From Octopus sinensis (taxonomy: Eukaryota): 36,078 nt of DNA. The notes under the pieces are model-generated. The model searched no databases. It was not told the DNA's origin and saw only the letters and a program-made list of their open reading frames with translations. Each line of letters opens with the position of its first letter. The stretch's first letter is position 1. Below, piece after piece: positions 3,581 through 26,363 of this stretch. The stretch spans positions 1 to 36,078 of the forward strand of contig NW_021836590.1 of assembly GCF_006345805.1 (NCBI RefSeq), given 5' to 3'. The position numbers were made by a program, and so were the translations under genes.

Positions 3581-3874
3581 TTAAGAATGAAATACGAACG
3601 TGAGGCAAACTTTCCAATGAGTAGCTACTGCGGTAGCAACTTTACAGTTAGCATCGACAAAATATATAGGAAATATGAGAGCAGAGAATGGAGAAAGAAG
3701 CGCCATTACAGTTGTCTTTGTAGCACCACCTTCTTTTCTTCTGACACCATCATTATCACCATCACCATCATCATCATCAGTATCAACATAGCCATTATCT
3801 TCGTCATCATCACCATCATCATCATCATCATCATCATCATCAGTAACAACATAGCCATTATCTTCGCCATCACC

Positions 3875-3906
<32 letters not shown>

Positions 3907-4320
3907 CATTATCATCATCATCATCATCATCATCATCAATATCAGTATCAACATAGCCATTATCTTCGTCATCACCATCATCATCCTCCTCATCATCATC
4001 ATCATCAATATCAGTATCAATATAGCCATTATCTTCGTCATTACCATCATCATCATCATCATCATCATCAATATCAGTATCAACATAGCCATTATCTTCG
4101 TCATCACCATCATCATCCTCATCATCATCATCATCATCAATATCAGTATCAACATAGCCATTATCTTCGTCATCATCACCATTATCATCATCATCATCGT
4201 CATCATCATCGTCATCATCATCCTCATCATCATCATTATCATCATCATCTTCATCTTCATCATCATCATCATCATCATCATCATAAACATTATCATCATC
4301 ATCATCATCATCATCATGAA

Positions 4321-4359
<39 letters not shown>

Positions 4360-4465
4360 CATCATCATCATCATCTTCATCTTCATCATCTTCATCATCA
4401 TCATCATCTGTAGCTGCAGCAGCAGCTTCAGCATCTTCGGCAAATTGGATTGAGTGGCGAATGAC
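3581..4465 (-). CDS. Candidate Asp-rich exon (294 codons), absent from the ORF track
   Basis: ttctacttttatag|GTC acceptor, then VIRHSIQFAEDAEAAAAATDDDDDEDD...(DEDNGYVDTDIDDD)n...GVRRKEGGATKTTVMALLSPFSALIFPIYF...; no stop until 3583-3581. Could also be only a triplet microsatellite. Confidence 0.3.
3745..4408. repeat. (ATC)n array with a higher-order ~60-nt unit containing atcagtatcaacatagccattatcttcg
   Basis: About six copies of the insert between 3777 and 4170; triplet frame preserved throughout. Confidence 0.95.
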
Positions 4466-11375: not shown

Positions 11376-11594
11376 CGAGGTGGGTTGCTGAAAAGTTTCT
11401 GGCGTTGGGAAAAACAAAATACATGAGGGTCAGTTAATTACGATTTTGTTCAACATATTCTCCTCTCTGATTCAAACACTTATTGCATCGGTCCTTTCGT
11501 TTTTCTAGACCCTGTAAAAGAAGGCGGAAGTTTGGACCTCCAACCAGGTCTTTCGCAACACCCTTAAAGCCAGGAATTTTTCAGTACCCCCTCG
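11376..11594. mobile_element. Mariner-type MITE
   Basis: TIRs cgaggtgggttgctgaaaagtttctggc / gccaggaatttttcagtaccccctcg; an inverted partial copy follows at 11632-11686. Confidence 0.8.
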
Positions 11595-11892
11595 TGTGTG
11601 TGTGTACATACACACACACACACGCACACAAGAGGGTGCTGAAAAGTTCTTGGCTTTAAGAGTGTTGCGAAAGGCCTGGTTGGAGGCCTAAGCTCAGTTC
11701 CTCTTCAGCGAGTCTTATTGACAGCCAGTCAAAACACGCTAAAGGGGATCTAAGGGTATTTCTCAAAGTTCGAAATCACGGTGATACAGATATGCCTGAC
11801 TTTTCGATTTTAGATTATTTTCGTTATTGGTACGGGGTTCTTTGGGTTTTTATTCATTTTCCCGCTTTCACCTTTGTGTTTAAGTGAAAGAC

Positions 11893-15242: not shown

Positions 15243-16164
15243 TGTTTGTTTGAAGCAGTGAAGTTTCCAAATCCACCGCCAATGTTTCTAGACTTTCGTA
15301 GTCATATCTTCAGGATGAATTGCTGTTGGCGCATGTTTCTCTTTTATAATAAGCACAGTTATTATGATTATTACATACATCATTACTTGCATTGGAATTT
15401 TTCCCATTAGACGTGTACGGCATGAGATATGTGTTCATTTTTTTGTGATTATTGTATGTTGTTGTCTGTCTACTTATTTTAAGCCTATCGTTTGCTAACA
15501 ATATTGTTTCCATTGTTGATCCTTTAGTTTTGAGTACAGATGTATTGTCCACAAACGTTTTTCTGTCCCTACATCCATCTACAAGGGTCCAAAAGGAAAC
15601 AGCTGCTAGTGACTAGGGATTGGAAAGTGTATAGGAACCTTTGGAGGGGGCGCCTAAGGACCCTCTAAGAAATTGTAGGCGGAGATGGCTGGCTGGCTGG
15701 ATGGATGGATGAATGGATGAATGGATGGATGGATGGATGGATGAATGGAAGGATGGATGGAAGGATGGATGGATGGATGGATGGATGGATGGATGGATGG
15801 ATGGATGGATGATGGATGGATATGAAAACGTTAGTGGACAATACATCTGTACCTTACAGAATTCCAAACAAAACTAGATGATCAAAGATGGAAACAATAT
15901 TGTTAGCAAGGTATAAAGTTAAAATAGATACACAGACAACAACATACACTAGTCACTAAAAGAAAAAGAACACATAGCTGATCCATTACACATCTATCGG
16001 GCAAAGCTCCATCGCCAGTAATGGTGTTTATAATAATCACATTGGCCGGGTTTATTATAAAAGAGAAACATACACCAACATCACTTCATTCTGAAGATAT
16101 GACTACGAAAGTCTAGAAACATTGGTGATGGATTTGGAAGCTTTACTGTTTCCAACAAACAACC
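15243..16164. mobile_element. Old, diverged inverted repeat (arms 15243-15562 and 15824-16164) with outward-facing hammerhead-like motifs and a (GGAT)n spacer
   Basis: caatgtttctagactttcgtagtcatatcttcag vs ctgaagatatgactacgaaagtctagaaacattg is exact, while the rest of the arms is visibly diverged. Confidence 0.8.
16085..16132 (+). ncRNA. Hammerhead-like motif (mirror copy on minus strand at 15272-15319)
   Basis: ttcatt CTGAAGA tat-gact-acgaa-agtc-ta GAAA cattggt gatgga; stems I and II present, cleavage triplet non-canonical. Confidence 0.5.
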
Positions 16165-17763: not shown

Positions 17764-17812
<49 letters not shown>

Positions 17813-18000
17813 CATTATATAAAAGGGCTTAGTAAATAAATTACTTTGCCACATACTGAAACTCATTAGAAAATCAGCAGCTAAAAAAATTTTAAACTAT
17901 TTCTAATACTTAAAGAAATCTCTCTCTATATAGTGTTTGCTCAAGTCACTCACGAAAGATGAAGGTAAAAACATTAAAACATCACAAATGCAAAGGTTAT

Positions 18001-18051
18001 TTGAACGTACGTTTTCTAGATAGTCAAATCGACATTTCTTTCGTCAGCTCA
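18001..18051 (-). ncRNA. Minimal type I hammerhead ribozyme (inverted-arm copy)
   Basis: tgag CTGACGA aagaaatgtcgatttgactatcta GAAAA c-gtac-g TT caa. Confidence 0.7.
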
Positions 18052-18475
18052 GAATTCCTTGGTTCGGATTTGGGAAACTGAAAGCGGGAGCATACCTTTT
18101 AGCTTCTATCACTTCTGAAGATCTGCTCGTACTATCAGTGGTTAGCAAATTCAAAATATGCAAGCGAAGAATTTCTTTACATACTGAATACTTTACATAC
18201 TGAATACTTGGTAAAATTGATTAATAATTAATTAATTTTACCCTCAATTGTTGAAATTATAATTTATTTCTCTCTATTTAATGCTTCGGTCTTTACCGAT
18301 AAAACAAAGTGTTTACTAATTTTAACCCACGCTGGTGGAAAGGGGAGAGCAGAATTCTTCGCTTGCTATTTTGAATTTGCTAACACTGATAGTCCGAGCA
18401 GATCTTCAGAAGTGATAGGAAGCTAAAAGGGTATGCTCCCGCTTTCAGTGTTCCCAAATCCGAACCAAGGAATTC

Positions 18476-18526
18476 TGAGCTGACGAAAGAAATGTCGATT
18501 TGACTAATCTAGAACGTACGTTCTCA
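18476..18526 (+). ncRNA. Minimal type I hammerhead ribozyme
   Basis: tgag CTGACGA a-aga-aat-gtc-gattt-gac-taa-tct-a GAA c-gtac-g TT ctca. Stem I tgag/ctca; palindromic GUAC loop; GAA here and GAAAA in the mirror copy suggest consensus GAAA. Confidence 0.78.
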
Positions 18527-18804
18527 ATAACCTTTGCATTTGTGATGTTTTAAAATGTTTTTACCCTCATACTTCGTGAGTTGACTTGAGCACACTATAT
18601 GAGAGAGATTTTCTTTAAGTATTAGAAATAGTTTAAAAAAATTTTTTAGCTGCTATTTCTAATGAGTTCAGTATGTGGCAAAGTAATTTTTTTACTAAGC
18701 CCTTTTATATAATGTAATAATTTGAATCGCCTTAAATGGTCCCTTTACTACTGAATACTTGGTAAAATTGATTAATAATTAATTTAATTTTACCCTCAAT
18801 TGTT

Positions 18805-18857
<53 letters not shown>

Positions 18858-24177: not shown

Positions 24178-25045
24178 AAATTAGAGATAAAACCACTATT
24201 ATGCAACTCAAATAGTGCATAAATAACAAATAATATATATTTTTATAAAACATAACTAGATCTCAAAAAGTATAAAAATGAATTATCAATATATAATATA
24301 TAATAAGTAAAAAAACTACGTACGTTTCATGGCTACAATTAAATTCGAATTACAATTAAGTTTAAATTCAATTGAAATAAATTCTATTTAAAATTATAGT
24401 CAATCTTCAGGTTAATGATAATAGTTAAATAAATAAACAAATAGAGTTAAACAATATTTATTTAAAAAATAAATAAAATAATAATTTTTCTTATAGAAAA
24501 AACTCCATTAACTAAATTTGAAACTTAAAACATTAGGATTATTTCCTACAACACATTTATTATGTTAAATATTTAATTTTTAAGGTAAAAAATAGATAGA
24601 AATATGTATTTATCTTTGAAGATATAATTTGGCTTAAAAAACATGATAAACTATCGAATATCTTTAACTCAGTTATACTCCAATATTTAATAACCAAATT
24701 ATTTTACAAAATAATCACTATTAATATTTTTAGATTTAAGTTCACATCTAATGATTATAAAATAATAAATACATAAAAATAGGTATCTAAATTATAATCA
24801 ACAAATATAGTAATTAAAAATTTTCTCTATCAATAAATATATAAACATATAACCAAAAATAAATTAGTCCATTATTACTTACATAAATATTGTAAATATC
24901 TATAGAATATATCTATGAAATACAATTGAAAAATTGAAAAATCAAATTAAAAATGTATAACCTATCTTTAAAAAAAACTTATTATTACTATTATCATCAC
25001 TATTATCATCACTATTATCATCATTATCAAAAACATTTCTACGAT
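24178..25045 (-). mobile_element. Extremely AT-rich hammerhead-bearing element 3
   Basis: Bounded by TA-rich repeats; HHR ~135 nt from the 3' end; no ORF recognised. Confidence 0.6.
24314..24413 (-). ncRNA. Type I hammerhead ribozyme with long stem II
   Basis: aac CTGAAGA t-tgactataa...ttgtagcca-t GAAA c-gtac-g TA gtt; perfect core, GUA site. Confidence 0.82.
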
Positions 25046-25092
25046 CTATATATACGTATGTATATATATATTATATCTATAGATATATAATA

Positions 25093-25591
25093 AATTTATA
25101 TATAGAGGGCATAATTATACATACATGCCAGGAGGCATTATATATACTTGCCAAACGCTAAGAGGGACAATCAGTCATTTCTACCAAAAATATTACTAAT
25201 ACACCGAATGCAATTTTCAAAGTAGACATTTAAAAATATAGGCCTGTATCACAGTGATTCATACTTACGTAATCATCAGCAGGCCTGAATGATTACGTAA
25301 GTATGAAATCACTGTGATACAGGCCTATATTTTAAATGTCTTACTTTGAAAATGGCATTCGGTGGGATAGTAATATTTTTGGTAGAAATGATGATTGTCC
25401 CTCTTAGCGTTTGGCAAGTATATATAATGCCTCCTGGCATGTATGTATAATTATGCCCTCTATATATAAATTAATATGTTCAATAAGAAATAATTATTTC
25501 GAATTTTTTCTCTTATGAGGTTTTTACGCTATCTACCTGACAATTTCTTGTTAAGTTTTCCTTATTAAGTAGTTGTCCTTAATTGCAAAAT

Positions 25592-25595
<4 letters not shown>
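25093..25595 (+). mobile_element. Fold-back hammerhead element 4 (spacer-less ~190-bp palindrome plus 3' tail)
   Basis: Arms 25093-25283 and 25284-25472 centred on aggcct; unique tail to 25595, then (TA)n. Confidence 0.85.
25240..25286 (-). ncRNA. Type I hammerhead ribozyme (mirror copy on plus strand at 25281-25326)
   Basis: aggcctg CTGATGA t-tac-gtaa-gta-t GAA(A) tcactgtga TA caggcct. The minus copy has GAA; the plus copy has GAAA but a damaged CUGAUGA. Confidence 0.75.
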
Positions 25596-25625
<30 letters not shown>

Positions 25626-25629
25626 TACA

Positions 25630-25820
25630 TACGACGAGCTTGTTTTCAGTTTCCGTCAACCAAATCCACTCACAAGACTTTGGTCGACCCGAAGCTATGC
25701 TAGAAGACACTTGCCAAAGGTGCCACTTGCCAAAAGTGCCACTGCGTGGCACCTTTGGCAAGTGTCTTCTAGCATGTGGTTTGTGAGTAAGCTTCTTACT
25801 ACACAGCCACGCCTGCGCCT
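25630..25820 (-). mobile_element. SINE family A 5' half with internal inversion
   Basis: atgctagaagacacttgccaaaggtgccac mirrored by gtggcacctttggcaagtgtcttctagcat. Confidence 0.8.
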
Positions 25821-26363
25821 ATACATGAATGTATGTTTATGTATGTTTAAGAAATTAATCGTGTGAGTGAGTCAGTGACTGAGTGAGTGAGTGAGTGAGT
25901 GAGTGAGTGAGTGACGGAGGTTGGGCGTGGGGAGAGAATGACTGGGTTGCCTGAGACACAGATTGATGAGAACCAATATTTGCGAAGAAGAACTTCCAGA
26001 CGAGCTATGAAATATAGTAACTACATTTATCTCGCATTAATTTAATGTATTACGCTCACATTTACAGACAGGCAAACACATACAGACACCCACCCAGACA
26101 CATTAATTCTATCGGTTATACAGAGGAAGAGCAACGATCTGGTGAAACTTGGTTCATTTGAACTGGTTCAACTGGAACTTTTCTAGTTTGAAACTCTGAC
26201 TAACCTGTAAGAAAATGTTCATTGTTACAGATGCATACATACGAAGAAAATACGCACATGCACACACATGTGTAAGATTAGTGAAAATGTATGCAAAAAT
26301 ACAAACGTGTATATATACACACATTCACGTTTACATGTAATATATATATTTTCACAATTTGAG

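Follow-up and report, generated by a model that had tools for sequence, protein, structure and literature searches.

How did a hammerhead-bearing repeat come to lie in the octopus genome as two mirror-image arms that appear to be hinged on the ribozyme itself? The question is raised by a locus in the Octopus sinensis contig NW_021836590.1, which was analysed over its full 36,078 nt (the window). An earlier note on this DNA had described a 380-bp palindrome (25093-25472) whose axis would be stem I of two back-to-back hammerheads, and had proposed that a cDNA snapped back at this stem to prime the inverted arm. Self-comparison confirmed that a spacer-less mirror is present at 25090-25475 (93.9% identity over 392 columns, E 6e-162, zero spacer). 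This mirror is only a portion of a longer element: the whole insertion spans 25090-25592 and is a single insertion of a 483-bp tandem hammerhead repeat.

Anatomy of the insertion

The insertion lies between a TA-rich microsatellite on the left (25047-25092), which is the likely insertion target and falls within a period-2 array called by TRF at 25047-25104, and a (TA)n microsatellite on the right (25592-25625, TRF). Junction mapping resolved it into two partial units, a left arm on the minus strand (25090-25291) and a right arm on the plus strand (25289-25592), respectively 96.7% and 96.9% identical to a real family copy. Unit positions were numbered from the predicted cut site, with one real copy (L008) as the reference. 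The left arm runs from its outer end, the fixed site A at unit ~157, back to unit 438 at its inner end, and the right arm begins at unit 453, crosses the predicted cut site and ends at the fixed site B (unit ~279). The right arm thus includes a one-sided extension or 'tail' of about 120 bp (25476-25592, plus strand, unit ~160-279), identified from the sequence and by family match.

Regarding the axis, the alignment centre is indeed the AGGCCT at 25281-25286, within the self-complementary CAGGCCTG (25280-25287) that forms the 5' strand of stem I. Although it looks like the centre of symmetry, this sequence lies entirely within the left arm, which passes through stem I and four further family bases to 25291. 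StuI, suggested by the earlier note for checking the palindrome, would cut at 25240, 25281 and 25321, not just at the centre. The true junction is off-axis, at 25289-25291, where a 3-nt overlap (ATG) is common to both arms; public contigs of the hammerhead family start at 25289 and stop at 25290-25291, the same positions as the arm ends.

Two predicted hammerheads are present, as had been claimed, but neither reads as complete. The left one (25240-25286, minus strand) is a predicted type I hammerhead with a cut predicted at 25247/25246; judged from the sequence and the hammerhead core motif, with no match in Rfam, it is complete bar one A of GAAA. This A is present in 127 of 131 aligned family units, and the gap is likely a sequencing error. 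The right one (25289-25326, plus strand) is a 5'-truncated remnant that lacks the first core bases because the right arm begins only at 25289, where it overlaps the left arm by ATG; its stem I is borrowed from the left arm, a motif scan found no intact core, and it is predicted to be inactive. Thirteen differences separate the arms from the reference copy, 11 of them single-base deletions; two of these deletions (unit 35) reflect a variant in the reference copy, and the other differences are rare or absent in the family. The contig thus seems to have been poorly polished and to contain read errors, in which case the arms are probably more than 94% alike and the left hammerhead is probably intact.

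An active copy is defined, in passages of bioRxiv 10.64898/2026.07.22.740005, by two consecutive complete hammerheads. These are absent at 25090-25592, which holds two partial units on opposite strands with the right hammerhead truncated, and the copy is predicted to be unable to release a monomer. No stop-free frame of at least 90 aa was found across 25090-25572, and the unit holds no RT or GIY-YIG frame, so that it was not classed as an autonomous Penelope-like element. A read-through transcript of the mirror, expected by the earlier note to form long dsRNA, is predicted to fold with 181 pairs (-291 kcal/mol), and the predicted hairpin would also mask both hammerheads.

The single-base deletions (11 of the 13 differences) form an error pattern that would also suit a fold-back artefact of long reads, the contig being small and unplaced. 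Such a reading would likewise fit a window that is an entire 36-kb contig and a junction sequence at 25289-25291 that occurs once in the genome. The listed public contigs (4 runs over 24850-25850 and 4 over 25259-25328) do not bridge the junction, these runs being of uncertain locus content and uninformative either way; the 21 public runs listed reach a best share of 0.30, with no RNA run recorded as a holder. However, a read chimera would mirror the flanking DNA and disregard the element ends, whereas here the mirror ends at family end A, the other arm ends at family end B and the flanks differ. The same architecture is moreover found at dozens of chromosome-scale loci. The mirror is not an obvious assembly fold-back, in line with the earlier note, and we regard an artefact as extremely improbable.

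Rejected at this locus was also a miRNA precursor, as the Rfam miRNA scores are far below the gathering cut-off and reflect the hairpin alone.

The 483-bp hammerhead repeat family and its neighbours

The genome search gave, among the scored candidates, 46 matches to the right arm at 96-100%, and an exact 43-nt core is present in 1224 copies in the 2.72-Gb genome. Family loci are head-to-tail arrays of a ~483-bp unit (core spacing ~481-485 bp) with a ribozyme motif in each unit; 13 cores follow in succession at C1:143.65 Mb. Intact copies show a 7-bp stem I with CAGGCCTG as its 5' strand, CUGAUGA, a helix II of U-U plus 3 bp, and GAAA, followed by a helix III that is 4 bp long and nearly palindromic and by AUA as the cut triplet. 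We take the unit to carry a type I hammerhead on the strength of a match by eye to the core motif. Rfam at the gathering score returned no match in the whole window and, at E up to 10 over 24900-25700, only weak miRNA-type and low-complexity matches and no hammerhead; RNAfold on the unit hammerhead returned stem I and a small hairpin for stem II, with stem III missing. Since Rfam is silent and RNAfold misses stem III, the ribozyme call rests on the motif. Three contigs of one public run, guessed to be RNA, hold the core and were not counted as expression. The family would best be read, from its sequence, as a protein-free non-LTR retrozyme.

Other elements are associated with this family. A diverged non-coding sister hammerhead repeat (L194 2250-2600) has its outer end A in (TA)n and retains a stem in which unit ~30-45 pairs with ~305-320. 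Unit ~379-398 is the insertion site of a LINE family that contains pieces of an endonuclease and an RT (L144, C2:90016800-90022800; L197-L223, L115 and L014), 14 of its 15 exact 3' ends being followed by this target site, and a second, shorter family with one long frame occupies the same unit site (3 of the 12 loci read). In the open-access literature we found no paper on this 483-bp family or on a LINE targeting a retrozyme.

The window holds further inverted structures, and the earlier note had placed the other fold-back junctions near short palindromes. These are not spacer-less folds. The inverted repeat at 1026-1177 has an unpaired centre of ~20 nt and a left arm with sequence absent from the right arm; that at 17811-18716 has a 179-nt spacer that repeats the far end of the element. 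Both resemble the asymmetric join at 25090-25592 rather than palindrome folds. Throughout the family, inner arm ends were not enriched in palindromes: among 132 ends, 45 fell in 4-nt palindromes (39.5% of the unit) and 32 in 8-nt palindromes (20.5%).

The first of these structures forms part of an inverted-plus-direct repeat of a different family (1026-2402), located between TA runs and split by a 5'-truncated LINE that matches the L144 family at 87%; a direct repeat of 21 nt accompanies it at 1300-1320 and 2131-2151. The second belongs to a head-to-head insertion of another repeat (17811-18806) with a hammerhead-like motif, 92% arms and a one-sided tail, again between TA runs; sequence related to it lies close to the GIY-YIG locus L170. 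An older head-to-head pair (78%) at 15243-16161 carries a minimal hammerhead-like motif per arm and a spacer with a microsatellite. Short imperfect inverted repeats (80-85%) are found at 2625-2802, 11529-11694 and 25697-25775; the first two are presumably mariner-type remnants, and the third sits in a very abundant dispersed repeat. Finally, a long (CAT)n-based array at 3748-4408 has a higher-order period of 63-69 bp and a 294-aa Asp-rich frame on the minus strand.

Outer and inner ends of the inverted arms

To compare the locus with its relatives, 95 loci were scanned: 11 distinct inverted insertions taken out of 30 best DNA matches, 30 of the first 100 core matches on C1, 52 selected by outer ends and 2 selected for a stem-I fold. 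These yielded 74 junction rows, of which 66 were kept after removal of the 2 fetched for a stem-I fold, 1 duplicate and 5 complex cases; in 2 rows the ends were set manually to those given by BLAST, and 23 loci contributed no row.

The outer ends fall at two sites about 120 nt apart, A (unit ~151-164) and B (unit ~268-285). Sixty-three of the 66 insertions combine one A and one B end, 54 of them cleanly and 9 after resolution through neighbouring segments or overlapping loci, and the remaining 3 run off the locus; no A+A or B+B insertion was found among the 66 (3 unread). Site A is on the left in 28 of the 54 clean A+B insertions. In the first 30 loci, chosen regardless of their flanks, and in the C1 sample, the outer ends are bordered by TA runs. 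The earlier view of the inversion as a retrotransposition product of a hammerhead repeat is upheld. Substitutions, compared over 33 loci, amount to 0.42% between opposite arms of one insertion, 0.54% between units within an arm and 2.8% between different loci, which shows that both arms derive from one template.

Two other origins were rejected, namely the recombination of two separate insertions, opposite arms being as alike as units within one arm, and a DNA-transposon MITE, the arms being partial retro-units with unequal ends.

At the inner ends, 53 of the 66 junctions lack symmetry, their positions being scattered across the unit. The earlier note held that fold points scattered at random across copies would speak against its snap-back. 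Scatter is the rule here, although symmetric joins are above chance: 13 of the 66 junctions lie at most 16 nt from symmetry (6.1 expected, p 0.005) and 7 at most 4 nt (1.8 expected, p 0.002). Exact folds occur at stem I at 3 other loci and at the neighbouring 8-nt palindrome TTACGTAA at 4; none was found at a third palindrome, ATAATTAT, a weak control, subfamilies varying there.

For the copy at 25090-25592 itself, the idea that one cDNA snapped back at the palindromic stem I and self-copied the second arm appears improbable. Unit 438-452 is present only in the left arm and unit 160-279 only in the right. Because each arm thus holds unit sequence that the other lacks, neither is a plain copy of the other and a simple snap-back is excluded at this insertion. 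The left arm runs 4 nt past the palindrome in family sequence, and an exact fold at 25289-25291 could be upheld only by assuming sequencing errors at three neighbouring bases that happen to recreate the base lying upstream in the family. Furthermore, a fold-back from the longer arm would put the loop on the longer arm, yet the loop is found on the shorter one. In favour of the snap-back are the alignment centre on stem I, the 3 loci with an exact fold there, the self-priming proposed for Penelope palindromic junctions (in passages of PMC3846280) and a local excess of inner ends at unit 441-449 (10 of 130, 2.8 expected with jittered lengths). However, the neighbouring palindrome yields more exact folds than stem I does, and where sampling took no account of hammerhead content, 4 of 68 inner ends fall at stem I with 1.45 expected (p 0.056), the windows having been chosen post hoc.

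Self-priming on an antisense transcript, giving a hairpin cDNA that then integrates, has been put forward for head-to-head Penelope palindromes (in passages of PMC3846280). It predicts symmetric junctions, at odds with the 53 asymmetric ones, and does not predict two fixed outer ends; we consider it very improbable here.

A hybrid route deserves more weight, though it is still unlikely. According to it, a cDNA started at A would stop at unit 438, fold on the 3-nt overlap, copy itself and switch template for the 120-nt tail, or else a longer hairpin would be opened and trimmed in repair. The junction at 25289-25291 is near-symmetric (offset 15), arm lengths fit a true fold-back at the near-symmetric loci L003, L004, L035 and L084, and symmetric junctions exceed chance, all of which would be consistent with this route. 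Yet it requires an extra unseen step, it leaves the strict A+B rule at the 53 asymmetric junctions unexplained, and a 3-nt overlap is anyway the commonest junction class (13 of 65). Arm lengths fit no arm-from-arm copying in 9 of the 54 A+B insertions and are also compatible with copy-back plus a template jump in the other 45; in view of these 45 and of the over-representation of symmetric junctions, true fold-back probably makes a minority of copies.

Overlaps of at least 2 nt were seen in 31 of the 39 junctions without extra bases, where chance gives 18.6%. Extra bases are present in 26 of the 65 scored junctions, which points to further repair or template jumps. Inner ends are also clustered along the unit, with p values that are nominal because the windows were set after data inspection. 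Unit 420-453 holds 24 of 130 inner ends (10.8 expected), 20 of 123 (10.2 expected) when conditioned on hammerhead selection and only 8 of 68 (5.6 expected, p 0.18) in the end-selected sample, and unit 29-65 holds 24 of 130 (14.0 expected). At the predicted cut site there is no excess of inner ends, with 5 of 130 at unit 1-16 and 0 at 478-483. Stem I is one among several sites of symmetric joins, within a mildly favoured zone, and the centring of the 25090-25475 mirror on it is largely a coincidence within that zone.

A two-cDNA reading and its relation to known elements

The reading that we prefer, with a probability of about 0.6, is that a Penelope-type RT/GIY-YIG enzyme acting in trans placed a non-LTR retrozyme head-to-head, in two arms, within a TA microsatellite, the two cDNAs being joined at a 3-base overlap. 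The enzyme would nick both strands of (TA)n; one target strand would prime reverse transcription at RNA site A, its partner at site B. Each cDNA would head towards the 5' side of the RNA, around a tandem or circular template, for a variable length and then stop, after which the two cDNA 3' ends would pair by microhomology and be filled in. At 25090-25592, both cDNAs would have halted at most 15 nt apart at the 5' edge of the hammerhead, in the mildly favoured stopping zone, and because the two stops were so close the product would resemble a spacer-less stem-I fold.

Autonomous GIY-YIG elements are present in the same genome, with frames of 762-883 aa and, in some, hammerhead-like motifs. Among 42 loci (150 of 5029 candidates scored), no GIY-YIG partner sharing sequence with the unit was found, the only match being the neighbouring non-coding sister repeat. 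Near-identical GIY-YIG elements with 780-781-aa frames lie on several contigs (L185-L190), two of them preceded by a further frame of 479 aa; in L185, direct repeats of 1.15 kb contain a hammerhead-like motif.

We tentatively raise a more specific possibility, namely that a dimeric enzyme primes both strands at RNA sites 120 nt apart and that most cDNA stops occur at two places, the 5' edge of the hammerhead (unit 420-453) and a conserved stem (unit 29-65), and not at the cut site. If so, the template would be an uncut or circular RNA, and its fold, ribozyme included, would determine the end points of reverse transcription; the Penelope inversion mechanism could then be tested genomically on hundreds of insertions. 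The single palindrome is of little weight in this respect, being one of many such insertions; the family matters more.

In L1 twin priming, both target strands prime cDNA and the inverted product is joined by a short microhomology. The octopus repeat differs from that system in that it has no poly(A), its priming sites are internal and fixed, and its template is a tandem or circular unit.

The insertion at 25090-25592 is real, and an unexceptional copy within a retrozyme family that bears the footprint of Penelope-like elements. According to passages of PMC7229834 and bioRxiv 10.64898/2026.07.22.740005, metazoan non-LTR retrozymes typically have units of ~170-400 nt, and their mobilisation by Penelope-like elements is a proposal. 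As described there, they share with the octopus family protein-free, low-GC tandem units with a type I hammerhead motif in each, and the axolotl HHR_Amex2 shares the U-U at the base of helix II. The octopus unit exceeds this range at 483 bp. In the passages of PMC7229834, where the word 'inverted' occurs 0 times, and of the preprint, where it occurs once, in a reference, no head-to-head two-armed (TA)n insertions with two fixed ends are described.

Such features are familiar from Penelope-like elements. Passages of PMC8557442 report an inverted 5'-truncated copy, a one-sided tail and a preference for (TA)n, and term the origin of the inverted repeats and tails unresolved. As far as the passages of PMC8557442, PMC3846280 and PMC11167929 go, the octopus insertions (25090-25592 and 65 further junctions) have in common with these elements the head-to-head inverted 5'-truncated copy, partial tandems, a tail between two start sites, an AT-rich or (TA)n target and microhomology or palindromes at the 5' junction. 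They differ in having no RT/GIY-YIG frame, a tail of ~120 nt as against the published 30-40, and A and B ends that are strictly paired on opposite arms. According to the passages of PMC11167929, one Penelope-like protein, studied in purified form, cleaves the two target strands and extends each of them, and its two start sites on the RNA are internal and delimit the tail. The octopus repeat, a young family in which one A end is strictly paired with one B end and the junctions can be mapped, offers a direct prediction for an in vitro test.
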